Of a stretch of DNA of 64,000 bases, positions 25,221 to 39,378 are shown piece after piece. The translations under genes were made by a program, and so were the position numbers. Source of the stretch: an uncultured Gammaproteobacteria bacterium (GTDB taxonomy: Bacteria > Patescibacteriota > Patescibacteriia > UBA11705). The stretch spans positions 56,237-120,236 of the forward strand of contig CAYPSS010000001.1 in NCBI GenBank assembly GCA_964413735.1, written 5' to 3'. The notes beneath the pieces were generated by a model. That model made no database searches and was not told the DNA's origin. It was given only the letters and a program-made list of their open reading frames with translations. How positions within the stretch are numbered: the first letter of the stretch is position 1; each line of letters starts with the position of its first letter.

Positions 25221-26504
25221 TTATTTCTTGTCAATAGGGATTACCACTTCTTTAGACCTAAAAACCAGCCAGCTCAATGAAAAAAACAACCACCACAAAA
25301 TACTTAAATCATTTTTAAAATACGGCACATCAACAATTCCATGCGTAATAATTACCATCAAGCAACAAATGAGCAATATATATAATGATCGATTATCAGA
25401 ATTTTTCACTTTCCAATAATTGATTAAATATTTGAGAATTAAGAATCCCACAATCAATAACCCCAAAATCCCAATTTCCGTCCAAAAATTCAAAATAAAG
25501 TTATGAGGATATAAATATATTTCCACCACTCCCTTAGCATGATGAAATGGCGCAATGGCCGTTTGATAACCGGAAATTCCCCCACCCCAAATTGGAGAAA
25601 CTTTTAACATTTGAATGGTTTCTTGCCACATTACCAAACGCAAGTTCCCGGAAAAATCCTGGAACAATGCTTTTTCCTGAACCAAACTACCAATGGTCGG
25701 AAAAGCAAAAACCCCCACCATAGCAAGAAAAAGAAAAATCAAAGTGATGATTCGCAATTTTTTGATTAACAAACCAAACAACAAACCACCAATTCCCAGA
25801 GCAACGATCGCCCCCTCACTTTGCGCAAAAAGGATGGCCAGAAAACCGCAAATGGCCACGATTAAGTAATAAATAATTTGGGACCAATATTTTCCCGCTG
25901 ATTTTTCCCAGAGCAAATAAGCTTGGCCGAGAAATAACAAAACCAAAGGCGCCAGATACAAGCCAATGGCATTGGGATAACCATAAACACTGGTCACGCG
26001 ACGCGTTTGTGCTACCGCCCAAAATTCATTGGGAATAAATGCCCCGGTAAACTTTTGATAAATTGCCAAAGCCGATATTCCTAAAATCGATAGCCCTAAA
26101 AATTTCAGGATCAATTGCCAATCATTTCTTGTTTTAATTATATTAATAAAAATAATGAAAAACATAATCGGCTCAATAAAGTAGGCTTTCCAGACTCCCA
26201 GGGCCGCTCGTTTATCAGGTGAATAAAAAATGGCTAAGCTGACAATAATTAACAACAGCAAAATCAACCATTTATAATTTGAATAAGTTAAACGTTGTTT
26301 AGATATTATTTTTTTAATAATAAAAAGAAAAAAGGCCACTAAAATCAATGCTTCAATCAAAGTAAACGGAACATTAAAAATTAAAAATTTAATTCGGTAA
26401 AACGGCAACACCAAAAGAAAAATCGCCAAACCCAAAGCCGGTCGGCGCCAAAACAAAACCCCAAACAGCAAGCTAACAAAAACCAAAATCATTAAATCAA
26501 TCAT
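25221..26504 (-). CDS. O-antigen ligase/polymerase-like (Wzy_C family) membrane protein
   Basis: 427 aa, 10-12 TM helices with large periplasmic loop, layout typical of O-antigen ligase family; 4-bp overlap with flippase gene. Confidence 0.5.
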   Translation of the reverse strand: MIDLMILVFVSLLFGVLFWRRPALGLAIFLLVLPFYRIKFLIFNVPFTLIEALILVAFFLFIIKKIISKQRLTYSNYKWLILLLLIIVSLAIFYSPDKRAALGVWKAYFIEPIMFFIIFINIIKTRNDWQLILKFLGLSILGISALAIYQKFTGAFIPNEFWAVAQTRRVTSVYGYPNAIGLYLAPLVLLFLGQAYLLWEKSAGKYWSQIIYYLIVAICGFLAILFAQSEGAIVALGIGGLLFGLLIKKLRIITLIFLFLAMVGVFAFPTIGSLVQEKALFQDFSGNLRLVMWQETIQMLKVSPIWGGGISGYQTAIAPFHHAKGVVEIYLYPHNFILNFWTEIGILGLLIVGFLILKYLINYWKVKNSDNRSLYILLICCLMVIITHGIVDVPYFKNDLSILWWLFFSLSWLVFRSKEVVIPIDKK

Positions 26505-27931
26505 AAATTATCAATGTTTGGCTTAGATAATTCCTTCCAAAAATCTTTTTTTATGGCTCCAAGTAAATATAGCATTCCAAAATATGTAATCGAAGCCATT
26601 AATAAAACAAATAAAATATGCCAATTGGGCAACAATAAAATTATCCCGACCATTACTAAGCCGGCCAAACAATATTTACCCAAAGCAATAAGACTGGGAA
26701 TAAATTTAGTTTCCCGATAAACCACCACAAAAGTCCAAACCATAATTACTACCTCAGAAAAAACCGTCATCCACGCCGCGCCCCAAAAACCGAACTTGGG
26801 AATAAAAATAAAATATCCAATCAAAGTAATAATACTGGTTGTTAAATAACCCCACATCATTTGTCGTTGCTTGTGCACGGCCAAAACTGCATAGCCAAAT
26901 AAACTGGTGACAAAAATCGCTCCCGAAGCCAGAATTAAAACTTTCAAAATTTCACCGGACATGGCAAAATCTCTGCCCGCCACAAAAACCATTACTTTTT
27001 GGGCCACCAAAAAAGTGCCAAAAACAATCGGCACCGCAAAAAGCATCAGAGAATCAAAGGCCAGTTGCATTAACTTTTTCATTTCCGTTAAATTTTTTTG
27101 CAAAAAATGATTGGTTAAATGAGGCAACACAATCCCCATATAAACGGCTGGCATCATGGTCAAAATATCCACGACCCGATAAGTCGCACCATAAAGCCCG
27201 ACATCCGCTTGCGGTCTAACAAGTGACAAAATAATGGTATCCATTTTCAAATAAATCAAATTAAAACCAATGGACAAAGCAATCGGCCAACTACGTTTGG
27301 CCACCGCCTTCCAAATATCAAAGTCAAACGCCCAACCAAATTCAATGTATTTGCGTGCATAATAGAAAACCACAATCAAATTCACCAAACTGCCAAAAGA
27401 AATGGTCAATAAAATATAAAATAATGACCCGCCAAGCAAGGCAATTACCGCTGTTAAAATTACCAGCACCAACCGGCCCAAAACCTCAGCAATCGTTACT
27501 TCAAACATTTTTAATTTTTTCTGGAAAACCCCGGTCAATACTTGAATAATAGTAATAAAGTAAAAAGAAAATGATGTGGCCAAAACACCCATCTTCACTT
27601 CCGGAGGATAAGGGAAAAACAAAACCACCAAAGGCGCCAACCCAATAAATAGAAACGAAGAGATTACGCGCAAAGTTAAAATATTTTTCAACAATCTCGG
27701 TTCATCTTGTTTTTCATCACTGATCATTTGCACGGTGGTGAGACTCAAACCAAAATCCGCCATAATGCCAAAAAACTGCAAAAAGGCAATTGCGGTAGTG
27801 TAATAACCAAATCCGGTTTGACCCAAATATCGGGTCATTATCGATACCGCCACCAACCCCAGAACTAAACTGATCATTTTGCCGGCAATTTGAATCAAAG
27901 AGTTTTTGGTAATTTTACTGTTAATTGACAT
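26501..27931 (-). CDS. Polysaccharide biosynthesis protein / oligosaccharide flippase (MOP superfamily, Wzx-like)
   Basis: 476 aa, about 12-14 TM helices, N-terminus typical of Polysacc_synt family (SLIQIAGKMISLVLGLVAVSIMTRYLG). Confidence 0.65.
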   Translation of the reverse strand: MSINSKITKNSLIQIAGKMISLVLGLVAVSIMTRYLGQTGFGYYTTAIAFLQFFGIMADFGLSLTTVQMISDEKQDEPRLLKNILTLRVISSFLFIGLAPLVVLFFPYPPEVKMGVLATSFSFYFITIIQVLTGVFQKKLKMFEVTIAEVLGRLVLVILTAVIALLGGSLFYILLTISFGSLVNLIVVFYYARKYIEFGWAFDFDIWKAVAKRSWPIALSIGFNLIYLKMDTIILSLVRPQADVGLYGATYRVVDILTMMPAVYMGIVLPHLTNHFLQKNLTEMKKLMQLAFDSLMLFAVPIVFGTFLVAQKVMVFVAGRDFAMSGEILKVLILASGAIFVTSLFGYAVLAVHKQRQMMWGYLTTSIITLIGYFIFIPKFGFWGAAWMTVFSEVVIMVWTFVVVYRETKFIPSLIALGKYCLAGLVMVGIILLLPNWHILFVLLMASITYFGMLYLLGAIKKDFWKELSKPNIDNL

Positions 27932-28003
27932 AAAATATATTTTGTTTGAAGTTTAATTACTTAAATTTTACCAATTTTTACCAAAAAAAACAAACTTCTG
28001 GGG

Positions 28004-28063
28004 TTGACAATTAAATATAATTGTACTACAATATACTGTTAATGGTTCCCCAAACAGGGAGGG
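28004..28063 (+). promoter_or_regulatory. Canonical sigma70-type promoter TTGACA-17nt-TACAAT plus strong SD AGGGAGGG
   Basis: TTGACA 28004-28009, TACAAT 28027-28032, SD 28056-28063, ATG 28068. Confidence 0.5.
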
Positions 28064-28067
28064 TGCG

Positions 28068-28508
28068 ATGCTGAAGTATATGATGGCAATGGTATTGGGA
28101 TATTTGATCCACAAGCATGGTGATCAGGTTACCAAGTATTGGAACAATCCGGAAGAGCTGGAAAAGTACTTTGAAAAGATCTTGAATGATGAAAAGCTGT
28201 CGGCTTTGAAGGAACGATTTGTGAAGGCTTTCAAGCAGGGAACGGATGCGCTGGAAGCGGAATTCAAGAAGTTCTTGGATGAGATGGCAGCCAAGGCCAC
28301 GGAAACTCCGCCGGAGGAGCCCGCTCCGCCTCCGGCTCCGGTGGTCATGCCCACGGAAAACTGCCAGAAGTGTGGGCAAGAGAATGCCATCGGCTCGCCC
28401 GCTTGTTCCAAGTGCGGTGGTCCGGTGACGTCGATTGCCGAATTGAAGGACATGTTGGAAGAGATCAAGAAGATTCCGCGCAAGCGTGGGCGGAAGCCTC
28501 CCAAGTAA
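28068..28508 (+). CDS. Small GC-rich protein: N-terminal hydrophobic helix, helical region, Pro-rich linker, CxxC-x11-CxxC zinc ribbon, basic AT-hook-like tail (RKRGRKPPK)
   Basis: 146 aa; coding region far GC-richer than genome; strong promoter, SD and terminator; ORFs on opposite strand are GC artefacts. Confidence 0.55.
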   Translation: MLKYMMAMVLGYLIHKHGDQVTKYWNNPEELEKYFEKILNDEKLSALKERFVKAFKQGTDALEAEFKKFLDEMAAKATETPPEEPAPPPAPVVMPTENCQKCGQENAIGSPACSKCGGPVTSIAELKDMLEEIKKIPRKRGRKPPK

Positions 28509-28566
28509 CGAAAAACGGTACGCAATGCGTACCGCTTTTTTGATATAGAAGATTACTCAAAACATT
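28476..28566. repeat. Direct repeat copy A (about 88 bp; 3' end of gene 28068..28508 plus terminator)
   Basis: About 85-90 percent identical to 30202-30292. Confidence 0.75.
28511..28541. terminator. Bidirectional rho-independent terminator (perfect 9-bp stem cggtacgca/tgcgtaccg flanked by A-run and T-run)
   Basis: gaaaaacggtacgcaatgcgtaccgcttttttg; a near-identical copy occurs at 30236-30267. Confidence 0.65.
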
Positions 28567-28601
28567 TAATAATAACTTTTTTTCTTTACTTTTTATTTTT
28601 A

Positions 28602-29060
28602 TTATTCAGTTTTTTGCTTGATCATTTCAGCGGCAGCATAATTAAAAACACCGATAACTGAAGTATCTATTCGTAATTTAGTATTCTGTGAATAATACCA
28701 GAAACACTCATATTTTTTATCAATTTCAATTTGAATATTTTTTTTCATAAAAACATAATTACCAAAACCACCACTATAATGATCAAATAACTTTGAATTT
28801 TTTTCAATCTTTTCTACTGTGGCATTATAAGACTCTTGATCAATAGACACATTAGTTTCATAAGTAATTAAACTATCTTCATTTTCCAACATATAGATAA
28901 TAACTCCACCTTCATTGCCCATAGCACCCAAAGGAGAAATTTCACAGTAAATTACTTTTTCAAGGTCAATGGAATTCAAGTTTTCTGTAGTAATAATTAT
29001 ACTATTTAGAAAAACTATTGGTTCATTTAATACCCCCCTATATACTGTTTTTGGACTCAT
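28602..29060 (-). CDS. Hypothetical protein (152 aa), AT-rich insert cargo
   Basis: Intact ORF inside the repeat-bounded insert; no recognisable motifs. Confidence 0.4.
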   Translation of the reverse strand: MSPKTVYRGVLNEPIVFLNSIIITTENLNSIDLEKVIYCEISPLGAMGNEGGVIIYMLENEDSLITYETNVSIDQESYNATVEKIEKNSKLFDHYSGGFGNYVFMKKNIQIEIDKKYECFWYYSQNTKLRIDTSVIGVFNYAAAEMIKQKTE

Positions 29061-29096
29061 AAATATATATTTTATTTATGGAATGATAGTTATAAA

Positions 29097-29999
29097 TTAT
29101 TTTTTATAAATACTTAAAAAACCACCAAAGTGTTCCTTGTTAAGATCCTTTCCGAAGGATTCGCCAAGTGCAACCAGCTTTTTGTACTCCAATGTGTCTT
29201 GAATATCTTTTTTGCTATAACGAATTTTGTTTAGATCAATGCTTTGTTTTTTGTTGAACTGAAATTCGGAAAATTTGAGTACTGCATTTCTTTTTTTTGT
29301 TATGATCAAAATATATGAGTTAAGCCCAGAACCATAAGAATTTACCTTATTAATTTTTATCTGGAAATTACTGCCGGCTTTTTCTTTAAGAATATTTTTT
29401 AGGTTTAAAATTTTATTTTTTTCATAGATACGCAAACGAGGTAAGGAAATTTTAGACGACCAAAAACCTTCATCTGTTCTGTCTATATTAATTATTGCAC
29501 GACCGTTAACTTTTAGAATTCTAGAAATTTCCGCGATGGCTCCAAGTTTATTTTCAAAAAAATGAAAAGCATTGGTAGAATATACTAGATCTATTGAGTT
29601 GCTTTTAACTGGAATACGCGTGCAGGCGTTGGCATTAAATAGTTTCGGGACAGATAAACCTTTGGTGTTTATATTGAATTCTTTGGCTATAATAAGAGGA
29701 TTTTTTCTCGCATCCTCCTGTCGTTTTTCTTCATTGTAAAAAATACTTCCTTTCCTTGGTTTTCTGCAAAAATAAATGCCAAACAAAGCTAAACTAACAT
29801 CGTTTTTTGAAAAAATACTACTTAATTCCCATAAAGATCGTCCAACGCCTGAACCTAAATCTAAAATAGATATTTTTTTATTGATCTTTATTTTATTGTC
29901 GATTTCTTTAACCAAATTATAGGATAGAATTTTTTCTACAGTTTTTAATGGACGGCTTATGCTAGGGTGGCTTTTTGTTGGTGGTTTTTCCATATTCAT
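29097..29999 (-). CDS. Class I SAM-dependent methyltransferase
   Basis: 300 aa; motif I ILDLGSGVGRSLWEL, post-II/III region IDLVYSTNAFHFF...ISRILKVNGRAIIN. Confidence 0.65.
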   Translation of the reverse strand: MNMEKPPTKSHPSISRPLKTVEKILSYNLVKEIDNKIKINKKISILDLGSGVGRSLWELSSIFSKNDVSLALFGIYFCRKPRKGSIFYNEEKRQEDARKNPLIIAKEFNINTKGLSVPKLFNANACTRIPVKSNSIDLVYSTNAFHFFENKLGAIAEISRILKVNGRAIINIDRTDEGFWSSKISLPRLRIYEKNKILNLKNILKEKAGSNFQIKINKVNSYGSGLNSYILIITKKRNAVLKFSEFQFNKKQSIDLNKIRYSKKDIQDTLEYKKLVALGESFGKDLNKEHFGGFLSIYKK

Positions 30000-30201
30000 A
30001 ATGTTTTTAATTAAATTATTAACTTGATTAAATCATATCACAAGTTATATTCAATATAAAATAAATTTTAAACTTTCTTTTTATGTTTTTGGTAATCACT
30101 TAGAAAAACACAATAAAATACTTAATATGGTTTAGTTAACTATTTACGCTATGCCATATTAAGAAAAAGGCGTCTATATTGCTTGTGTATAATTTAGTTA
30201 T

Positions 30202-30292
30202 CCCGCACAAGCGTGGGCGGAAGAGTCCCAAGTAACGAAAAACGGTACGCAACGCGTACCGCTTTTTTAATAGAAGAGCTTATTCAAAATGT
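30202..30292. repeat. Direct repeat copy B (degenerate duplicate of gene 28068..28508 3' end and terminator)
   Basis: Retains coding remnant ...PHKRGRKSPK-stop and the cggtacgcaacgcgtaccg hairpin. Confidence 0.75.
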
Positions 30293-30708
30293 TCTATAGT
30301 AATTTTATTCAAATCACCATTAATAATAATCGGCTTCACTGCTTCAATTTCAGTTTTGCAATAAGGCATTTCAGGAATGGGGTTTAACATAAATATTTTT
30401 TGATTCAGAACATGGGCAAAGCCAATTTCCATTAGAGTATTTCCACCAACATAATTTTTTATCCCATTCTTATCAAAATTTAATACCAGCACCGCATCAG
30501 CCCCTTGCATCATTCTCCAAAATTCACGGATAGCGTCCATGTTATTCTTTTGGTGAAGTTTAATAGTTTCAATTTCCTCCTCGGTTTTTCCCACCATTGT
30601 TTTGTGCAAGTCCGTCAAAAAGGCCTCGTGTCCCAATTCCCGAAGTTTTTCGCGGTACTCCAGCATTTGATCTGTAAATTGCATTGATCCAATTATTCCT
30701 ATTCGCAT
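30280..30708 (-). CDS. Nucleoside 2-deoxyribosyltransferase-like protein (PF05014-like Rossmann fold)
   Basis: 142 aa; MRIGIIGSM N-terminus and ADAVLVLNFDKNG...GGNTLMEIGFAHVLNQKIFML matching the D-x-GT-x-E-hGYA catalytic-glutamate block of the NDT family. Confidence 0.45.
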   Translation of the reverse strand: MRIGIIGSMQFTDQMLEYREKLRELGHEAFLTDLHKTMVGKTEEEIETIKLHQKNNMDAIREFWRMMQGADAVLVLNFDKNGIKNYVGGNTLMEIGFAHVLNQKIFMLNPIPEMPYCKTEIEAVKPIIINGDLNKITIEHFE

Positions 30709-30936
30709 AAGAAAGATTTTAAAAAATTTGTAATTTCGCGTAATGTTTTGGTGTATCTAATGTTTCGCGAAGTGTAGGCAAATTTTTGCCTTTTATTTAT
30801 TTTCTTCGATAAATATTATGATTATTTAGTTTCCCAGATTATTCACAAAAATCTGCTTATTTTTATTTAATTTTCCCCCATTTTTGGCGAAGGGTAGAGG
30901 GGTTAGGGATGAATGCCCCGAAGCCAAGACTCCTTA

Positions 30937-31698
30937 TTATAATCTGTTCATCTGATTCAATATTTCATTCGCGAGATCTCGTTTGTCTATTAAATATTCG
31001 TCCCATTTGTTTGATTCTTTTCTCTTTCGTCCGGCAACAAACCCAAGCATTTTTTCGCCTTGTAATTTGTTAGACAATTTCAAAAAATCAGGCGCAGGCA
31101 CAAACCAAACATAATCCCATAAATCGCCTTGCTCTGTATCAAAAAAGCAAAACACCAAAGCCATTGAATATCTATCAACCACACTACTGGCTTTTGCTGT
31201 GGCGGTAAAAATATCGTCAGGGTTATCGCCAAAACGACTTTTGATTTGAATATACATTGTTTTCAAACTTTCTTTTCTTTTCACGATTAAATCAATGCCT
31301 TCGTCATCGGAAATCGGTTTGTAGCAAGAAAGAGTTGTATCGCCGTAAAGTGTAACGAGCTCGGCGATTCTGGCTTCGGCAATGTCTCCTTTTTGTTTTG
31401 AAGAAACATCTTTGGAAATTGTGTATTTCTTTTCTTCTTTTTCCGCTTCTTTTGCTTTTTCTGGTTCTTTGTAGTCGGGATTTAAACCAAAAGTGCTTGG
31501 GGCAGTTTTGATAAATCGAGATTTATCTTTTTTGGAATTTATATCAACGACAAGCTGGGCGTTCATGGTCGCTTCGGGTGTTTTTCCGGCGGTTTTTAGC
31601 CAGCCATGATCCAGCGCAATTTTTGTGATTTCTTTGCTGTGAAGTGGTTTGCTGGCTTCTTTTAAAATTTGATATGCAAGTTCTTTGAATGAGTTCAT
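30937..31698 (-). CDS. HARE-HTH (winged helix) N-terminal domain fused to restriction-endonuclease-like (PD-D/ExK) C-terminal domain
   Basis: 253 aa; N-terminus ELAYQILKEASKPLHSKEITKIALDHGW...RFIKTAPSTFGLNP typical of HARE-HTH; C-terminal D-x(n)-GIDLIVKRK-like D/E-x-K block. Confidence 0.45.
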   Translation of the reverse strand: MNSFKELAYQILKEASKPLHSKEITKIALDHGWLKTAGKTPEATMNAQLVVDINSKKDKSRFIKTAPSTFGLNPDYKEPEKAKEAEKEEKKYTISKDVSSKQKGDIAEARIAELVTLYGDTTLSCYKPISDDEGIDLIVKRKESLKTMYIQIKSRFGDNPDDIFTATAKASSVVDRYSMALVFCFFDTEQGDLWDYVWFVPAPDFLKLSNKLQGEKMLGFVAGRKRKESNKWDEYLIDKRDLANEILNQMNRL

Positions 31699-31699
31699 A

Positions 31700-31857
31700 T
31701 TATTTTTGATAACATTCTATGCAAAGTTTGGTTTGATTTTTGTTTAAACTCGCCAAAAACCGATCCTCGCAAAAATATTCTTCACCTTTAGGAATAATTT
31801 TTTTGCACTTCGTGCAAACGTATTCTTTTCTAGCTTTTTTCTTGACTAAATCCATAT
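31700..31857 (-). CDS. Small zinc-ribbon protein (52 aa; CxxC...C...CxxC), not in supplied ORF track
   Basis: MDLVKKKARKEYVCTKCKKIIPKGEEYFCEDRFLASLNKNQTKLCIECYQK read from minus strand; sits between Res gene and HARE-HTH gene. Confidence 0.35.
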
Positions 31858-34617
31858 TTATTTTAGTAATTGATCGGTAAAGACTTCTTCAAACTTAACT
31901 TCTTCTTTTCTGTTAAACAATGGCAATCCAATCAACGAATATTTTTTACTTTCAGCTTTTAATAAATCGCCAGTCCCGTATTTATCAGTAATTTGCTGTA
32001 AAAATTCTTCTTTCCAGCCCTCCTTGCTTTCTTTAAAACCACCTTCTTTATCAGCAAATTGACCGCCTTTTGGTTCAATAAAAATTTGGTAATAAAGGTT
32101 GTTTTTGTTTCCTTTCAAAAACAACAAAAAGTCCGGCTCAAAACCACGACCTTGCTCAAAGTCATAAATTTTATAAACCTCTTCGTTTCTAAGTAAATAT
32201 ACTTCTTGATATTGTTCTTCCAAATTTCCTATTTTCTTTTTCATAAACTCAAGCAACTCTCTTTCTTCGCTTGTTCCATTAAACCCATTTAGCACATACC
32301 AATTATGCTGTAATAGTTCAGTCTCAAGATTTTTGCTTTCCGGATCAATAAGCACGCTTTTTTCTTTTTCTTCACCAAATAAATCTTCAAAAGAAAAAGA
32401 CTCAAATTTTTCCGTTCCTTTGTGTGGATTGGCAATCTCTTTTAATTTCTTTGTAAATACTTCAAAAAATACAAGCAGCAAGTTTAATTTTTCCTCATTA
32501 CTAATATCATCTAAGCTATTTTTATCTTTTGAAGTAATTATATTGATTTTAAAATTACCAAGAAAATCGCTTGAGAAAATATCATCAACACTATTTAAGC
32601 TTAATTCGGTCTGTAAATTATCAAAACGCAGAAGCGAAAGATCTTTTGTAGCTTTTTTGTTTATGGCTTTGGCTACGATATGTTTTTCAAAATCGCTAAA
32701 TTTTACTGATATTGTTTTCTTATCTTTTTGTTTGCTTTCAGCAAGTAATTCATCTGTGTCTTTGTCTAAAACAACTTGCTGTTCTTTCATTATGAATTCG
32801 CTTGTCGTAAATTCAAAAACAAAATCTTTAGCCAATTCAGCTAAGGTTAATTTTCTTCTTTCCGGATTGTCTATTCTTTCATTTTTCCAAACCTTAATTT
32901 CCTTAAAAAAACCGCTTTGTTTAAAATCTTCCTTTAAGGCAAACTTCTTTATTGTACGGTTATCTTGAATAAACCCTTTATTTTTAAGTTCTCGTTTTAA
33001 TTCATCAAGATAGCGAACGTCATCGTCGCTGTGATAATAAAATTCTTCCAATACTCTCATTGGATTTTCTAAATCGTTATCAAATTTCCGTTTGTTTCTC
33101 TCGTATTCGTTATGATTAAAAGGAAAGTATCTAACTCCGCGTCCAATAAGCTGGATTTCTTGCAGGGTGGCTTGCCCCGCAACTCTTTGCCCGTTTTGGT
33201 GACCTTCATCACGGCCTTCATAAAGCCGAACAATATCAAAAAGATTAAGCACGTCCCAGCCCTCAGTTAAGCGCTTAACGGTAAAAATAGCTCGTATATG
33301 GTTATTTTTATCTTCTAAACTATTTAGTAATTGCTCTTGTTCTTCTGTGGTTTTTTCTTTCGTGGTGGCTTTGTTATCTTTTGAGTTGGTTATAATACAG
33401 TTTCTTTCAGAAAATTCGTCTTTGATGTAATTAACAATATCTCTTATGTTTATCTTTTCGGCTTTAATAAATCCTAGCATTTGTTTAACACGACTTTTGC
33501 CTTGTTCATACACCTTGAATAAACTTGCTTGATCTTCCTTAATACTATTCTCGACATTCTTTAAAAAGGCAAAATCAGTGGCTTGCAAATCAGCGATTAG
33601 TGCTAAAAAATACTCATAATCATTTTTTGATTCTTCAATCAGCTTACTACGAAACAACATTACTGGTTTAAAATTGGCGATATTATTTTTAAGCGCAATT
33701 TGGTGACGATACCAATTAAAAAGCAATGCGAGCAATATTTTTTCTTTTTTATTAAGTGATGTAGAAACTAAGTTTATTTCTTTTGTATATCCGGCTTTTA
33801 GAAAGTCAACGAGCTCAAATTTATAGATAGTTTTTGTCCTGTATTTTTCAACAACGTCGGCATTTTTTGGTATTGTGGCCGTAAATTCAAGCAAAACATT
33901 TCTATTTTCACTATCTTGTGTCTTTTTCCCTTTTCTTAAAATTTTATTTAAGACGGTATTTTCCCAGCTTTTTTCAACATCCTTTTCACTAGCGTTTTCT
34001 TTCAATTCTAAAGGCAAATCCATTTCCTCCTGACCATTTCGTATGGTTGAAGCGTTAAGGTGGTGCGCTTCATCGCCAATCATTACCAAATCTCGCTTTT
34101 GCAATTCACCAAGCGTCACTGAGTTTTCTTTTGCTAAATAAACTGCGTTATGAAGTTTATGAATAGAAGTAAATTTTATCTGTATGTCATCAGTATCATC
34201 AAAAGTTTCTACTTTGCGGATATTGATCGTCTTATCTTCAACGACTATATTTTGACGGAATTCGTATTTTGTATGTATTTTGTTGATAAAGTTGTTTTCC
34301 GTCTTATCAACGATATTGTTTTGATTTACAAAAAATATAAAATGTCGATAACCTTTTTTGTAGTAATACAAAATTAAAGCCGCCATCATCATGGTTTTGC
34401 CCGTTCCGGTTGCCATGTTAAACATCAAATGCGTTGGATCGTTTATATTTTCAACAAATTTTTCTTTTCTTTTCTCAAAAATATCAAAATATTGCATGGC
34501 ATCTTTTTGCCAATACCAAAAATCGTGCTTCAAATTGCTTTTAATATAATCCGGCACTTCATAAGATTCACCAGCAATATCAAGATATGTTTTAATCTTT
34601 TGAAATAATTCTTCCAT
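31858..34617 (-). CDS. res: Type III restriction-modification system endonuclease/helicase subunit (Res)
   Basis: 919 aa; SF2 helicase motifs ATGTGKT (Walker A), IGDEAHH (DEAH), C-terminal endonuclease region; stop/start coupled to Mod. Confidence 0.85.
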   Translation of the reverse strand: MEELFQKIKTYLDIAGESYEVPDYIKSNLKHDFWYWQKDAMQYFDIFEKRKEKFVENINDPTHLMFNMATGTGKTMMMAALILYYYKKGYRHFIFFVNQNNIVDKTENNFINKIHTKYEFRQNIVVEDKTINIRKVETFDDTDDIQIKFTSIHKLHNAVYLAKENSVTLGELQKRDLVMIGDEAHHLNASTIRNGQEEMDLPLELKENASEKDVEKSWENTVLNKILRKGKKTQDSENRNVLLEFTATIPKNADVVEKYRTKTIYKFELVDFLKAGYTKEINLVSTSLNKKEKILLALLFNWYRHQIALKNNIANFKPVMLFRSKLIEESKNDYEYFLALIADLQATDFAFLKNVENSIKEDQASLFKVYEQGKSRVKQMLGFIKAEKINIRDIVNYIKDEFSERNCIITNSKDNKATTKEKTTEEQEQLLNSLEDKNNHIRAIFTVKRLTEGWDVLNLFDIVRLYEGRDEGHQNGQRVAGQATLQEIQLIGRGVRYFPFNHNEYERNKRKFDNDLENPMRVLEEFYYHSDDDVRYLDELKRELKNKGFIQDNRTIKKFALKEDFKQSGFFKEIKVWKNERIDNPERRKLTLAELAKDFVFEFTTSEFIMKEQQVVLDKDTDELLAESKQKDKKTISVKFSDFEKHIVAKAINKKATKDLSLLRFDNLQTELSLNSVDDIFSSDFLGNFKINIITSKDKNSLDDISNEEKLNLLLVFFEVFTKKLKEIANPHKGTEKFESFSFEDLFGEEKEKSVLIDPESKNLETELLQHNWYVLNGFNGTSEERELLEFMKKKIGNLEEQYQEVYLLRNEEVYKIYDFEQGRGFEPDFLLFLKGNKNNLYYQIFIEPKGGQFADKEGGFKESKEGWKEEFLQQITDKYGTGDLLKAESKKYSLIGLPLFNRKEEVKFEEVFTDQLLK

Positions 34618-34619
34618 AT

Positions 34620-36686
34620 CTATTTTTTGGTATTATAAAATTCTTCACTTAAAGCAATATCTTCTTTGGATAGGTTATATTTTTTGTCCGCACGTTCACT
34701 GAAATTGACATATATTTGATTCATATCAAGCATTTCCACAAACAATTTTTTCTGCTCATTTAAACTAAGCTTTTTAAATCCTTCTTCCTTGATTGTCTTT
34801 TCATTAAATTCTTTTGTTTTGACATTGTAGTTGAAGAAATATCGTTCATAGAGTTCGTCAAAAAGTTTTTCAAGTTCACTTAAACTTTTTGCTTTTAATA
34901 TTTTTTCCTTTGCTTCCTCGTTCCATTTTGCGAGTTCTACGGAAATAAAATTACCGCCACCGTTCCAATTAATCCTTTCTGATATTCCAGTACTATCACC
35001 TTTTAATACATTATTTAATCTAGTTATACTATCATCTTCCCCATAATCTAATTGTTCTATTCCTATATACTGAAAACCTAGCTTGTGAGCAACTGCACAG
35101 GTAGTTCCGGATCCCAAATGATAATCTAAAATAATATCATTATCCGAAAGCCCTAACTTTACAATTCTATCAATAAGCTCTTCGGGTTTTTTTCCACTTT
35201 TAAAACTGACATCTCCTTCAATATCTAGCCTTCCCCATGAGATATCTGTCCATAAGGATCCTATCTCTTCTAATTTATATACCTGACCATCTGCTTTTTT
35301 CGCACTATCCGCAAACCAAACAACTAGAGTTTTATTCCAAATATATTTATTAACTAATTTCCCTTTATCTCGGCCACTTTTAGGTATATATTCATAAGAA
35401 ACTAATTTGTTTTTTCCTTTTATAATTCCATTAATTTTATCCAGAAGAGATGTTTGTGCATTAGTTACCATAAAAATCTTGTCAAAATACTTTTCATAAA
35501 CATCATTGACCGATAAATTTTCATTTTTAATTAAATTATTTACAGTTTCAAAATTGAACTCTGTATGCTCAAATACTTTAATACCATCAATTTCAGTAAT
35601 TAATTTTCTCTTTCCTGCATCCATTAATACTCTTGTATAATAAAAACCAACGCTCTCCTCTTTATGCTTTCTAATATAATCTTCAATAATTGTAGCGTTA
35701 TAAATTGGCTGATAATCGAAGAAATCTTTATTTTTACAATAAAACAAAATAAACTCGCTGTTCTTTTTCATTTTCTTATCTTCACCACCACCGCTGGCAC
35801 CCGAACTAGCTTTAGCTTTAACTGTTATCGTATTTACATAATTTGATGAATGAAAAATATCATCAAGTAAGACCTTTAAGTACGCCAATCCCTCATCAGA
35901 TATTTGAATAAATATCATTCCATCATTTGTTAATAAATCTCTAGCTATTTTTAATCTATCTTTCATAAAAACTAACCAAGTAGAAAGTTTGAAATTTGTA
36001 TTATATGCGAAACTATCACTTGTTTTATTCCCAGTAAAATAATACGGTGGATCAATATAAATTAACTTCACTTTTCCTGTAAATTGCTCCTTAAGGGAAT
36101 GAAGGGCAAGAAGATTATTGCCTTTGATTATTAAATTTTCACGGATTGTGCCGTCTTTGTCGCGTTTTAATTCTTTTACTTTTTCCTCACCTTTAGTGGT
36201 ATATCTCTTCCAATTTACCAAGGCTTTTGGATCTTCGAGTCGGTCAATTTCATCTTTGGCCAAAACTTCATTGAAAAATATTTCATTTCTCTTTTGATCT
36301 TCTTTTGTCATTCCACCTTCAAGCACACAATCTTTGAATGGCCAGTCTAAAACGACCTCATTTCTTTCGGAAAGTAGTTGATTGCCAACTCGAAGTCCGA
36401 TTTTGTTTTGGTATTGTGTGTATGAATTGTCAAGTTTGTTTTCATCAATAAAAAACTTTAATTCATTTTGCTTGAGGACAACAACATCTTTAATTTTGAT
36501 AAAAAATTTCTCTTTTGCTTCTTTATCGCTCAACAGAATTTCAATAAGTTTTTCATCAAGCTTGTCGACCAAATCTTTCAAAAGTGTTTCGTTAAACTCT
36601 TTCGTTTCTTCATTCCACAAACGAGCATCCTTTTTAAGTAAGCCGTATAGTTTAGTTTTAAAATTTTCCATAGTATTTGATTTCAT
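34620..36686 (-). CDS. mod: Type III restriction-modification system DNA methyltransferase subunit (Mod), N6-adenine/N4-cytosine class
   Basis: 688 aa; catalytic motif IV LIYIDPPY, SAM-binding DYHLGSGTT region. Confidence 0.85.
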   Translation of the reverse strand: MKSNTMENFKTKLYGLLKKDARLWNEETKEFNETLLKDLVDKLDEKLIEILLSDKEAKEKFFIKIKDVVVLKQNELKFFIDENKLDNSYTQYQNKIGLRVGNQLLSERNEVVLDWPFKDCVLEGGMTKEDQKRNEIFFNEVLAKDEIDRLEDPKALVNWKRYTTKGEEKVKELKRDKDGTIRENLIIKGNNLLALHSLKEQFTGKVKLIYIDPPYYFTGNKTSDSFAYNTNFKLSTWLVFMKDRLKIARDLLTNDGMIFIQISDEGLAYLKVLLDDIFHSSNYVNTITVKAKASSGASGGGEDKKMKKNSEFILFYCKNKDFFDYQPIYNATIIEDYIRKHKEESVGFYYTRVLMDAGKRKLITEIDGIKVFEHTEFNFETVNNLIKNENLSVNDVYEKYFDKIFMVTNAQTSLLDKINGIIKGKNKLVSYEYIPKSGRDKGKLVNKYIWNKTLVVWFADSAKKADGQVYKLEEIGSLWTDISWGRLDIEGDVSFKSGKKPEELIDRIVKLGLSDNDIILDYHLGSGTTCAVAHKLGFQYIGIEQLDYGEDDSITRLNNVLKGDSTGISERINWNGGGNFISVELAKWNEEAKEKILKAKSLSELEKLFDELYERYFFNYNVKTKEFNEKTIKEEGFKKLSLNEQKKLFVEMLDMNQIYVNFSERADKKYNLSKEDIALSEEFYNTKK

Positions 36687-36920
36687 AAGTCAATTTATTG
36701 TTATTGTAGTTTATTTCCCCTTATAAATAAATTGTTTTCTGAAGCGCAGCGGAAGAAAACACCTTATACCCCCCTCTTAAAATAATAAAAATAAAATTTG
36801 ATCATTATAGAAAAGTGTTAGGCATTAGCCGTAAAAAGAAAAGGGATATTTCAGCTAACTCGTTTCAATATACCTAAACCTCATAATAACAACCACTTAT
36901 ATTATAAAAACTACTATTTC

Positions 36921-37184
36921 TCACTTCACCGGATCATTCCCACCCTTACTCCACGGATTACACCTCATAATCCGCCAAATCGCCTTAACCCCACCCACAA
37001 TCACCCCATATTTCTCAATCGCCTGATACCCATATTGGGAACAAGTGGGATGAAAACGACAAAAACCATACGGATACCAGGATTTTAAGGGACCGTGGTC
37101 CGGCGATAAGGTTTTCTGATAAATTTTGATTAATTTCAAGACCAGAAAACGCGGATAAAATTTAAAAGTGTTGAATATTTTCAT
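36921..37184 (-). CDS. yidD: Membrane protein insertion efficiency factor YidD
   Basis: 87 aa; LIKIYQKTLSPDHGP...CRFHPTCSQYGYQAIEKYG signature. Confidence 0.85.
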   Translation of the reverse strand: MKIFNTFKFYPRFLVLKLIKIYQKTLSPDHGPLKSWYPYGFCRFHPTCSQYGYQAIEKYGVIVGGVKAIWRIMRCNPWSKGGNDPVK

Positions 37185-37535
37185 TTATTTCACTATTCTT
37201 TTTAATAAAGTTTCTAAATTTCCCTTAATTTGGTCAAATTCCAAAGTTTTGGCTTTTGGTTGCACGACCACCAAAACATCAAAACCCGCCAATGTGGTAA
37301 TTTTTTCTTTGAAAATCTCTCTGATTTGCCGTTTCAATCGATTTCGCACCACCGCTCGATTATCCACCTTGGTATTGATAATAATCCCTAAGCGAAAATT
37401 CGTCTTATCTCCTCTTAATACTTTAATAACAAAAAACGGATCCGAAGCTGATAACCCCTTTTTTAATTTGAAACTTTTACCGAAAAATTCGTCAATTTCC
37501 TTTTTCTTGTTAATGCGATTCTTTGCTTTTAACAT
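37185..37535 (-). CDS. rnpA: Ribonuclease P protein component
   Basis: 116 aa; RLGIIINTKVDNRAVVRNRLKRQIRE conserved RNR motif region; immediately downstream of rpmH. Confidence 0.85.
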   Translation of the reverse strand: MLKAKNRINKKKEIDEFFGKSFKLKKGLSASDPFFVIKVLRGDKTNFRLGIIINTKVDNRAVVRNRLKRQIREIFKEKITTLAGFDVLVVVQPKAKTLEFDQIKGNLETLLKRIVK

Positions 37536-37592: not shown

Positions 37593-37739
37593 TTATCTAT
37601 CAGATGTAGTTAAACTTTTGCGACCGCGAACTCGTCGTCGTTTCAACACTTTGCGGCCGTTTTTCGTACTCATCCGTTCTAAAAAACCGTGTTTCTTGGC
37701 TTTCTTTCTTTTATTTGGCTGATAAGTTCGTTTTGGCAT
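37593..37739 (-). CDS. rpmH: 50S ribosomal protein L34
   Basis: 48 aa [48 protein letters not shown] read on minus strand; absent from the ORF track (shorter than 60 aa); classic rpmH-rnpA-yidD order. Confidence 0.9.
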
Positions 37740-37986
37740 AAAAAAAATTTAATATGAGATTAAGAACATAATACCTTATTATCATTATAATGTCAATAGA
37801 AAGGAATTAAGACACCCAAGCCCCTTGTCAAAAAAATTTTAGGTGTGCTAAAATGGAAAACGAGAGTTATCAACAAGTTATTAACACAATACCAACTTTT
37901 CATTGCTTTACGACAGTTTATCCACAATTGTGTTCGTGTTAAAATAGCATTAAGTTAAATTAAATTAAAAATAAAATACTTTATCT
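37740..37986. promoter_or_regulatory. oriC-proximal region upstream of dnaA with DnaA boxes
   Basis: Perfect DnaA box TTATCCACA at 37918-37926; TTATCAACA at 37867-37875; AT-rich; located between rpmH and dnaA. Confidence 0.6.
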
Positions 37987-39378
37987 ATGGAAGATCGCAA
38001 TCAAGCTCTATGGAACGCCGTGTTGGCGGAAATGGAACTTAGCCTTAGTAAAGCCAGTTTTACCACTTGGCTGAAAAACACTTTTATAGTAAAGAACGAA
38101 GATGGCCGAATTGTTATCGGTGTGCCCAACACCTTTTCTCAGGCCTGGCTCAAACAAAAATACCACCAAAACATTTACAAGATTATCCAAGACAAAAGCG
38201 ACGAACGCATCAAGGAAATCATTTATCGGGTGCAAACCTTGAAAAACTACAAAGAAGAAGTGGAACAATTCAAGAAAAATGCGGTTAAAGAAGCTTGTTT
38301 GGACAGCATCCAAGCCAAACCAACCATTATTGAACCAACTTTTTCCGAAAATAACGGTTTAAACAACAAATATACTTTTGACAGTTTTATTGTGGGCAAA
38401 AACAATGAACTGGCCCACGCCGCCGCTAAGGCCGTGGCCCAAAATCCGGGTTTTACTTATAATCCGCTTTTTATTTATGGCGGAGTGGGACTGGGGAAAA
38501 CCCACTTATCCCAAGCCATTGGTAATGAGGTGACCAGAAATAATCCCAGTAAGAAAATTTTGTATGTTACTTGTGAACAATTTACCAATGATTTTATTTC
38601 TTCCATTCAAAGTGGCGCTCCCGAGAAATTTACCAAGGTTTATCGCACCGCTGATGTACTTATTATTGATGATATCCAATTTTTGACCGGTAAAGAAGGC
38701 ACGCAAGAAGCATTTTTTCATACCTTTAATGATTTACATCAGAAAAACAAACAAATTGTTATTACCTCGGATCGTCCACCCAAAGCCATTGCCACACTGG
38801 AAGATCGTTTATTGTCCCGTTTTGAATGGGGTATGATTGCTGATATTTCACAGCCGGACCTGGAAACCAGAATTGCGATTTTGGAAACCAAATGCAGGGA
38901 AAAAGAGTTTAATTTGGAAAGAGAGATCATCCAATACATTACTATGAATATCCAAAACAATGTCCGCGAATTGGAAGGCGCTTTGAATAAAATTATTGCT
39001 TATTATCAATTGAACAATATTTCTCCCACCATGGAAAATGTCAAAAATATTCTATTTTCCATTTCTTCTTCCAGTCGAAAAAACGATTCTGTCACCATTA
39101 AAAAAGTTTTGGAAACCATCAGCACTTTTTATGAAATTTCCACCGATGAAATTACCGGCAAAAGCCGTGAAAAGCGTTATGCCTTGCCTCGTCAAATTAT
39201 TATGTTTTTAATGCGCGAAGAATTAGGATACTCCTATCCAACAATTGGCGCAGAAATCGGTGGCCGAGATCATACCACCGCGATGCATGCTTATTCGAAA
39301 ATCAGTCGTCAAATAGAAAATGACGAAAAACTCCGCCAAGAATTAAATCTCTTGAAACAACGACTTTATTCTTGTTAA
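37987..39378 (+). CDS. dnaA: Chromosomal replication initiator protein DnaA
   Basis: 463 aa; Walker A GGVGLGKTHL, sensor motifs, C-terminal DNA-binding domain (RDHTTAMHA). Confidence 0.95.
   Translation: MEDRNQALWNAVLAEMELSLSKASFTTWLKNTFIVKNEDGRIVIGVPNTFSQAWLKQKYHQNIYKIIQDKSDERIKEIIYRVQTLKNYKEEVEQFKKNAVKEACLDSIQAKPTIIEPTFSENNGLNNKYTFDSFIVGKNNELAHAAAKAVAQNPGFTYNPLFIYGGVGLGKTHLSQAIGNEVTRNNPSKKILYVTCEQFTNDFISSIQSGAPEKFTKVYRTADVLIIDDIQFLTGKEGTQEAFFHTFNDLHQKNKQIVITSDRPPKAIATLEDRLLSRFEWGMIADISQPDLETRIAILETKCREKEFNLEREIIQYITMNIQNNVRELEGALNKIIAYYQLNNISPTMENVKNILFSISSSSRKNDSVTIKKVLETISTFYEISTDEITGKSREKRYALPRQIIMFLMREELGYSYPTIGAEIGGRDHTTAMHAYSKISRQIENDEKLRQELNLLKQRLYSC

Follow-up and report, generated by a model that had tools for sequence, protein, structure and literature searches.

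We analysed a stretch of 64,000 nucleotides (hereafter the window) and focused on a segment close to dnaA that holds a Type III restriction-modification (RM) pair, Mod and Res. Behind this pair lies HARE253, a protein of 253 amino acids (aa) that joins an N-terminal HARE-HTH domain to a predicted nuclease domain. The DnaA protein of the window (37987-39378, plus strand) is at most 78% identical to that of any species representative, and its best matches bearing lineage names are mostly metagenome-assembled genomes (MAGs) of Candidatus Falkowbacteria, within the Patescibacteria or candidate phyla radiation (CPR). Between rpmH and dnaA, at 37918-37926, is the one perfect DnaA box of the window, and the cumulative GC skew has its minimum at 39-40 kb; therefore, the segment is placed beside the probable replication origin. 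All open reading frames (ORFs) named in an initial annotation were present on the minus strand at their sites, and the zinc-ribbon ORF exists as claimed, its length being 51 aa rather than 52. The features are as follows:

37593-37739, minus strand: rpmH
37185-37535, minus strand: rnpA
36921-37184, minus strand: yidD (PF01809, E = 1e-26)
27932-36920: variable segment from the flippase gene to yidD, a lineage-specific insertion hotspot
34620-36686, minus strand: Mod (688 aa), Type III RM methyltransferase of the beta-class N6-adenine type (IDPPY ... GSGTT)
31858-34617, minus strand: Res (919 aa), superfamily 2 (SF2) helicase (GTGKT, DEAH) with a C-terminal PD...ExK nuclease
31700-31855, minus strand: zn51 (51 aa), CxxC...CxxC zinc-ribbon protein
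30937-31698, minus strand: HARE253 (253 aa), N-terminal HARE-HTH and predicted C-terminal PD-(D/E)xK nuclease domain
30280-30708, minus strand: ndt142 (142 aa), fold of the nucleoside 2-deoxyribosyltransferase (NDT) superfamily by structure model
28545-30272, minus strand: 1.7-kb insert with mt300 and hyp152, bounded by direct repeats
29097-29999, minus strand: mt300 (300 aa), class I S-adenosylmethionine (SAM) methyltransferase
28602-29060, minus strand: hyp152 (152 aa), hypothetical protein
28068-28508, plus strand: ORF of 146 aa, convergent to the island, with a zinc ribbon and a basic tail
26501-27931: polysaccharide flippase gene
25221-26504: O-antigen-ligase-like gene

A Type III pair had been called here from a DPPY methyltransferase and a DEAH helicase, and both profile matches and translated motifs bear this out. 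Mod matched N6_N4_Mtase (PF01555, 2e-31), TypeIII_RM_meth (PF12564, 2e-16) and the PADLOC model MTase_III (1e-193), and its translation shows IDPPY and GSGTT. Res matched ResIII (PF04851, 5e-26) and, over residues 15-915, PADLOC REase_III (1e-106), and its translation shows GTGKT, GDEAHH and a C-terminal EPD...IEPK. By these features the two genes are predicted to form a complete, standard Type III RM system. The genes that follow are tightly packed, with spacers of 2 nt between Mod and Res, 2 nt between Res and zn51 and 1 nt between zn51 and HARE253, whereas 228 nt separate HARE253 from ndt142. The order Mod-Res-(zn51)-HARE253 recurs in three other loci, L116, L143 and L122, the last of them without zn51. 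Their Mod proteins are 59-77% and their Res proteins 83% identical to those of the window, and the cassette DNA is ~77% identical over 4.2 kb, the target-recognition domain of Mod excluded. As DNA similarity to all three is missing across 35141-35725 of Mod, this domain has probably been swapped between the window and these loci. The core of the segment thus appears to be a four-gene operon, Mod-Res-zn51-HARE253, acquired as a cassette, and the proposal of a horizontally acquired RM island next to yidD is supported.

The N-terminal domain of HARE253 (residues 3-72) matched HARE-HTH (PF05066) at 5e-22, with 78 bits against a cut-off of 25.9, and the C-terminal domain matched PDDEXK_5 at 1e-4, with 22.4 bits, under the cut-off of 26.1. 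An exhaustive search collected 1,881 relatives, some of them stand-alone nuclease domains of 150-180 aa and others with 4-8 copies of the HARE-HTH domain. When relatives down to 26% identity were aligned, K103, E108, D131, D136, Q151 and K153 each showed at least 90% conservation, and the signature E108...D136...Q151-x-K153 (E...D...QxK) was near-invariant across the relatives. PD-QxK is the catalytic signature of Mrr (PMC11037411). Thirteen of 37 family members matched PDDEXK_5 and 12 of 37 DUF4365; Mrr_cat and Mrr_cat_2 were matched by one of the 37 each, at E-values of 1e-2 to 6e-4. Three proteins of a metagenomic protein library, P0259, P0269 and P0274, are 750-1,130 aa long and carry 6-8 HARE-HTH repeats in tandem, and we know of no described architecture of this kind. 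We also observed an element of ~50 nt directly after the HARE253 stop codon (30884-30936) that is conserved in the four closest copies, those of the window, L081 (6275-6330), L094 and L095, and that contains an inverted repeat, GTCTTGGC ... GCCAAGAC, without a T-run. The whole HARE253-ndt142 spacer did not fold better than shuffled sequence (z = -0.87).

Database searches returned 925 homologs of HARE253. The best 120 clusters, all of 250-276 aa, are 75-93% identical to it, which we judged to be far above the DnaA maximum of 78%, and come from MAGs labelled Patescibacteria, Minisyncoccia, Pacearchaeota and Thorarchaeota. We examined 85 HARE253 loci (80 from metagenomes, four from exact look-ups and one from a viral collection), of which 75 are independent, and clustered the neighbouring ORFs and annotated them by Pfam and PADLOC. 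The homologs in the 75 independent loci are 71-94% identical, and HARE253 is almost always the last, translationally coupled gene of an RM operon. Where at least 300 nt of upstream sequence were available, a co-oriented upstream gene was present in 64 of 70 unique loci; the gap to it was at most 6 nt in 47 of these 70, and in 11 the two genes overlapped by ATGA. An RM component stood in the same co-oriented run in 37 of the 43 loci with at least 3 kb upstream.

The partners belong to RM types I, IIB, IIG, IIS and III, or GmrSD/HEPN genes adjoin. They comprised Type III Mod and Res; Mod with another ResIII helicase; a BcgI-like pair of HSDR_N_2/N6_Mtase (HsdM-like) and an HsdS-like subunit; HsdR; R.AlwI between two methyltransferases; a 911-aa type IIG enzyme; an Eco57I-type methyltransferase with a T5orf172 helicase; an M.EcoRI-like enzyme with GmrSD and HEPN_AbiU2; and DUF2806. 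All partner methyltransferases carry amino-methyltransferase motifs, and C5-methyltransferase motifs were found in none of the 75 loci, on which ground we rejected HARE253 as a Vsr-like repair nuclease. A relative only 54% identical is likewise embedded among RM genes. Taken together, the gene neighbourhoods argue that HARE253 is a real, recurrent, RM-coupled accessory defence part. A different reading would make it a C-protein-like transcriptional controller of the RM operon, with the nuclease-like domain serving dimerisation or ligand sensing, as its N-terminal winged-helix DNA-binding domain and constant association with RM operons might suggest. However, the near-invariant E...D...QxK residues argue against a controller, several HARE253 operons already start with a classical XRE-type C protein (cluster c13), and a regulator of unrelated promoters would not be expected to stay ~80% identical. 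We therefore consider this reading very unlikely.

With regard to wider surroundings, the flanks of HARE253 loci contain Gabija, PD-Lambda-5, DUF4238 (DUF4238-Pers) and Shedu (SduA_C) genes as well as serine recombinases and integrases. An OLD/GajA-type nuclease (c6) lies just downstream of the HARE253 homolog in L099, L114 (5630-7516), L119 (4038-7711), L130 and L163, with a confirmed GajB helicase beside it in L119. With several systems side by side, the contigs with such flanking genes are defence islands, and large serine recombinases often mark their limits. A scan of the virus collection with HARE253 gave a single match, the GenBank phage and PLSDB plasmid collections gave no match, and PHROGs gave nothing; these scans do not speak for phages or plasmids as the source of the island genes.

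The small gene in front of HARE253, zn51, belongs to no family in Pfam or PADLOC and has only weak matches in PHROGs. In 16 of the 85 loci, the HARE253 homolog is preceded at a distance of 1 nt by a homolog of zn51 (43-80% identity), and these homologs share the motif hxCxKC...EERFLASLNKNQxKLCxxCY. The genes upstream of them encode a Type III Res, another ResIII helicase, HsdR or a methyltransferase. Because these homologs sit before the nuclease gene behind different RM types, zn51 appears to be an optional partner of the HARE253 nuclease and not a part of the Type III system; it would act as an optional small zinc-ribbon cofactor or regulator of HARE253. A second, unrelated CxxC...CxxC family (c32) stands directly before the nuclease gene in L113 and L134, and in L124 it is shifted upstream by one gene.

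In nearly all loci, DNA similarity to the window is bounded by the borders of the HARE253 ORF (30937 to ~31700), the exceptions being L116, L143 and L122, where it extends over the whole cassette. The closest copies of HARE253 (94% identical in L095, 93% in L081 and L094) have non-Type III partners, whereas in the cassette-sharing loci the identity is only 77-78%, so the gene seems to be exchanged between operons as a gene-sized unit. The median dN/dS (ratio of non-synonymous to synonymous substitution rates) against the window copy was 0.096, at a saturated dS of ~1.6. Since dN/dS is ~0.1 at saturated dS, the uniformity of HARE253 reflects strong purifying selection and not just recent spread.

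Exchange of this kind raises the question of whether HARE253 is a selfish gene. As a gene of the homing-endonuclease or addiction type, with or without zn51 in the part of an antitoxin, it would insert at the 3' end of mobile RM operons and hitch-hike there with little benefit to defence. DNA homology confined to the ORF would fit such a gene, and so would a phylogeny that departs from those of the partners, the ATGA start that in the 11 overlapping loci supplies the stop codon of unrelated upstream genes, the fact that the best nuclease match in Pfam is PDDEXK_5, and the serine recombinases and integrases that often flank the loci. On the other hand, the flanks share no common target for site-specific homing, the substitution pattern described above speaks for long-term selection on function with no recent sweep, HARE253 was not found in the phage and plasmid collections (with the single match in the virus collection), and zn51 is present in only about one fifth of the loci. 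On balance, we find a selfish gene improbable.

The explanation that we favour, with moderate confidence, is that an RM cassette has settled in an insertion hotspot and that HARE253 complements its RM partner in a Type IV-like manner, as an accessory, Mrr-like restriction nuclease that discriminates by DNA modification; the remaining genes would be cargo. The gene identities, the operon structure, the conserved linkage and the purifying selection are observed directly. HARE253, whose gene closes the operon behind that of the methyltransferase, would be translated together with its partners and would be a second, autonomous DNA endonuclease. In it, a HARE-HTH winged-helix domain, for which the literature predicts reading of modified bases, would be joined to an Mrr-like PD-QxK domain; it would cut DNA with non-host modifications that escapes classical RM. 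As HARE253 stays near-constant while the specificities of its partners vary, its DNA recognition cannot match the partner sites, and a Type IV-like role against foreign modifications is therefore favoured. Its nuclease activity, its modification-reading role and the direction of that role are what we infer from the sequences. On this favoured reading, modification would trigger HARE253 rather than block it.

Several observations weigh against this assignment. The nuclease domain stays under every Pfam gathering threshold, a family profile search found no relative of HARE253 in the PDB and a plain sequence search nothing usable, and no PADLOC model matches the protein. In its AlphaFold model the HARE-HTH domain is confident, whereas the nuclease domain has a predicted local distance difference test (pLDDT) score below 50, and it is at this confidence that the predicted alpha-beta-beta-beta-alpha-beta order is present. 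Moreover, HARE253 almost never occurs without a methyltransferase in the operon, which fits dependence on partner methylation better than an independent Type IV enzyme. As a genomic hallmark, Type IV enzymes usually lack a cognate methyltransferase, and HARE253 does not share it. Finally, the amino-only partner methyltransferases fit either direction of modification sensing.

These points bear on the possibility that HARE253 is instead a methylation-blocked effector, shared by any amino-methyltransferase system, whose HARE-HTH domain reads the N6-methyladenine or N4-methylcytosine of the partner as self and which cuts DNA lacking the mark. The same-operon methyltransferase (37 of 43 loci), with HARE253 placed downstream as R genes are, and the exclusively amino type of the partner enzymes, none of them C5, are in line with it. 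Iyer et al. call HARE-HTH-nuclease fusions the restriction enzymes of N6-adenine (N6A)-modifying RM systems (PMC4738411), and characterised Type IV fusions of a winged-helix (wH) domain to a nuclease rarely have methyltransferase neighbours (PMC11037411, section 15). Against it, the sites of the partners are few (one per 1-4 kb) and vary with the system, and a motorless protein of 253 aa has no evident way to tell foreign DNA from long unmethylated stretches of the host. Every partner system already has its own nuclease, and HARE253 also stands behind GmrSD and HEPN_AbiU2. We regard a methylation-blocked effector as possible but unlikely. Speculatively, and with rather little weight, one may go further and see in HARE253, with or without zn51, a universal plug-in effector. 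It would combine a sequence-context-independent methylation reader with a nuclease, could be recruited by any system built on an amino-methyltransferase (RM types I, IIB, IIG, IIS and III), and would pass as a single gene from operon to operon, even across the divide that separates CPR bacteria from DPANN archaea. If true, this would represent a new self/non-self logic for restriction systems and would, for the first time, assign a function to the prokaryotic ancestor of the HARE-HTH domain of ASXL.

The genes further downstream belong to a different context. The suggestion that ndt142 is NDT-like holds at the level of its fold. Its match to PF05014 is sub-threshold (E = 0.017; 15.7 bits, cut-off 28.8), NCBIfam and PADLOC gave no matches, and a sequence search against the PDB gave nothing usable; however, Foldseek with the AF2 model (pLDDT 90.5) placed NDT, BcmB or YtoQ structures in the top 19 positions of the PDB, including T. 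brucei NDT and bacterial NDTs, with DNPH1 from rank 23. The matches to the NDT superfamily had E-values of 5e-4 to 1e-2 and template modelling (TM) scores of 0.5-0.6. The invariant glutamate E94, in MEIGFA, sits where the NDT-family nucleophile would be expected. The family (137 aa; loci L085-L092 and L177-L184) has 2,798 homologs, the best 120 of which are 80-91% identical and come from many CPR classes and some archaeal-labelled MAGs; the window copy has a C-terminal extension of 5 aa within the repeat region described below. Homologs of 83-89% identity lie in housekeeping operons (murA-ndt-mreB, mnmA-ndt) that are unrelated from genome to genome. The seven independent contexts that we inspected comprised four housekeeping or nucleotide-metabolism operons and three mobile-element or hypothetical-gene regions. 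The seven included sites near infB, beside a NUDIX gene and next to an integrase, and none of them contained known defence genes. Viral contigs and PHROGs held no relatives. Besides the 228-nt spacer, ndt142 has its own terminator hairpin (30243-30261) and is best read as a separate transcription unit that is not part of a defence module. It shares the fold of the NDT/DNPH1/BcmB superfamily by its model, and differs in its sub-threshold Pfam score, its own very conserved 137-aa family and its housekeeping contexts. For annotation, NDT-fold genes in CPR genomes should not be called defence genes on adjacency alone.

The insert with mt300 and hyp152 was confirmed to be bounded by repeats. The two direct repeats (28473-28582 and 30200-30309) are 84% identical over 110 nt, with 72-nt cores (28473-28544 and 30200-30271) that are ~93% alike, and the weaker part extends into the 3' end of ndt142. 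They contain the last 36 nt of the plus-strand ORF and a GC-rich bidirectional terminator hairpin (28516-28534 and 30243-30261) with T-runs on both sides. Because the copies are 84-93% identical, they resemble a donor and a recipient copy after a single crossover rather than a transposon target duplication; it looks as if a 1.66-kb segment integrated by this route within the convergent terminator region, the mechanism being deduced from the repeats. The mt300 product matches Methyltransf_11 and is a class I SAM enzyme, probably of the small-molecule type. It has only 16 homologs, in a non-defence context, and one of 86% identity lies among GNAT, glyoxalase and OsmC genes without hyp152. In the PADLOC defence library the accessory genes had no match beyond a partial one of mt300 to mad2 (3e-8), which covers only profile positions 278-485 of 492, the generic methyltransferase part, and PADLOC found no other mad genes of the MADS system in the island. 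PHROGs gave only a weak match for mt300. For hyp152 there was nothing in Pfam, PHROGs or the PDB, and the virus-collection scan found no relatives. The convergent plus-strand ORF is GC-rich in an AT-rich genome. Its product begins with a hydrophobic stretch and continues with a linker rich in proline, a CxxC...CxxC zinc ribbon and a tail, RKRGRKPPK, that resembles an AT-hook; the ORF had no relatives in any fetched locus, in viral contigs or in PHROGs.

The initial annotation had joined zn51, HARE253, the NDT-like protein, the SAM methyltransferase and hyp152 into one nucleotide-modifying defence module beside the RM pair. The genes are indeed co-oriented and adjacent, ndt142 has a real NDT fold, and mt300 has its weak mad2 match. 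Nevertheless, none of the 85 HARE253 loci contains ndt142, mt300 or hyp152, and the homologs of these three genes, where found, occupy the murA-mreB, mnmA and infB contexts or the GNAT, glyoxalase and OsmC neighbourhood described above. The long spacer and separate terminators split the transcription units, and mt300 and hyp152 arrived as a separate repeat-bounded insert. A five-gene module is thereby largely refuted, and we consider it extremely unlikely. What stands of an extra defence component beside the RM pair is HARE253, joined by zn51 in some loci, which is RM-linked; ndt142, the mt300/hyp152 insert and the plus-strand zinc-ribbon ORF are unrelated cargo of the hotspot.

We then considered the insertion site, mapping the proteins of the window onto 80 dnaA loci from GTDB species representatives. 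The nine closest Falkowbacteria loci that keep both flanks share the order wzy-flippase-[variable]-yidD-rnpA-rpmH-dnaA-dnaN. The distance between the flippase gene and yidD was 95 bp in L006 and 110 bp in L008, where the two genes directly abut, ~0.5 kb in L009, ~1 kb in L003 and L007, 2.6-4.8 kb in L010, L002, L005 and L004, and 9 kb in the window. The cargo between them is unrelated from genome to genome, with SPFH proteins and a 190-aa plus 420-460-aa hypothetical pair as examples, and none of the 80 loci carried island genes at this junction. The 9-kb stretch is therefore best described as a strain-specific variable region at a Falkowbacteria insertion hotspot, ~1 kb from dnaA.

It had also been proposed that the island sits where yidC would follow yidD. 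In more distant Patescibacteria a gene of 235-270 aa does follow yidD, and the four tested are YidC (PF02096, E <=1e-50). A hidden Markov model (HMM) built from nine such genes found no yidC in the 64-kb window, and it found none within 10 kb in the 11 closest loci (L001-L011) either; the 44 six-frame ORFs that it matched were all in loci outside L001-L011. Because the closest relatives without the island also have no yidC nearby and have the flippase gene at the same junction, the island did not displace yidC, and the link between yidD and yidC had been broken earlier in this Falkowbacteria clade. For annotation, the yidD/flippase junction can be recorded as a Falkowbacteria insertion hotspot, and the missing yidC as a lineage trait rather than a consequence of the island. 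In L001 (312-2312), L002 (5182-7026) and L005 (5836-7713), yidD is directly followed by a conserved pair of 174-194 aa and 420-463 aa whose products are soluble and highly charged, have no Pfam match and are not found in the window; on these properties we rejected the 190-aa and 420-460-aa genes as divergent jag or yidC. In L006 (6539-9103) and L007 (5253-7625), a gene of ~2.5 kb (854 and 790 aa) is inserted between rnpA and rpmH, so the origin-proximal ribosomal/RNase P cluster also takes insertions in this clade.

A review statement given in PMC12455944 holds RM systems to be the chief defence of CPR bacteria, which are ultra-small and poor in CRISPR. A nuclease that is ~80% identical at the end of every type of RM operon suggests a common second restriction layer in ultra-small bacteria. 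The uniformity of HARE253, its place at the end of RM operons and its spread in ultra-small prokaryotes make it a reasonable experimental target; with 253 aa and without known toxic partners, it also offers an easy handle on the ligand of the HARE-HTH domain. This domain also occurs in human ASXL proteins, where its ligand is debated.

Finally, we compared the locus with known systems. EcoP15I-type Mod methylates one adenine of a short asymmetric site, and the Mod2Res complex uses ATP to find two inversely oriented unmethylated sites and then cuts nearby; Mod and Res of the window would act by the same mechanism. They share with the EcoP15I/EcoP1I-type systems the mod-then-res order, a beta-class DPPY methyltransferase with a TypeIII_RM_meth N-terminal domain, a Res that combines SF2 helicase motifs with a PD...ExK at its C-terminus, and a variable target-recognition domain. 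They differ in the two extra translationally coupled genes after res, zn51 and HARE253, and in their host, an uncultured Patescibacterium. Mrr, the Type IV enzyme of E. coli encoded in the immigration control region beside hsdRMS, resembles HARE253 in its N-terminal winged helix, in its classical RM neighbours and in the C-terminal PD-QxK domain, which for HARE253 is predicted; in contrast, there is no significant sequence match between the two (Mrr_cat matched by only 1-2 of 37 family members), and HARE253 lies inside the RM operon while Mrr is a separate gene. According to a New England Biolabs (NEB) study, HARE-HTH carries one more helix than a simple wH domain and may read cytosine rather than adenine modifications (PMC11037411).

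Proteins of the kind of HARE253 have already been predicted by comparative genomics. Fusions of HARE-HTH to a restriction endonuclease (REase) fold were predicted by Aravind & Iyer 2012, as cited in PMC4738411, PMC10853773 and PMC12839542. These three papers, comparative-genomics work of the Aravind group, describe HARE-HTH-nuclease fusions as predicted restriction enzymes of N6A RM and, for Dnd and BREX loci, as effectors that discriminate modification or serve as a backup. As far as these citing papers present them, HARE253 agrees with the fusions of Aravind & Iyer 2012 in its predicted two-domain architecture, its linkage to modification-based defence (N6A RM, Dnd, BREX) and its predicted role. 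By the same accounts, the HARE253 subfamily differs from them in being unusually uniform (~253 aa, at least 71% identity over the 85 loci), in being restricted to uncultured CPR-like and DPANN-like MAGs and not found in the GenBank phage and PLSDB collections, and in standing as the last coupled gene of every RM type, sometimes with a zinc-ribbon partner.

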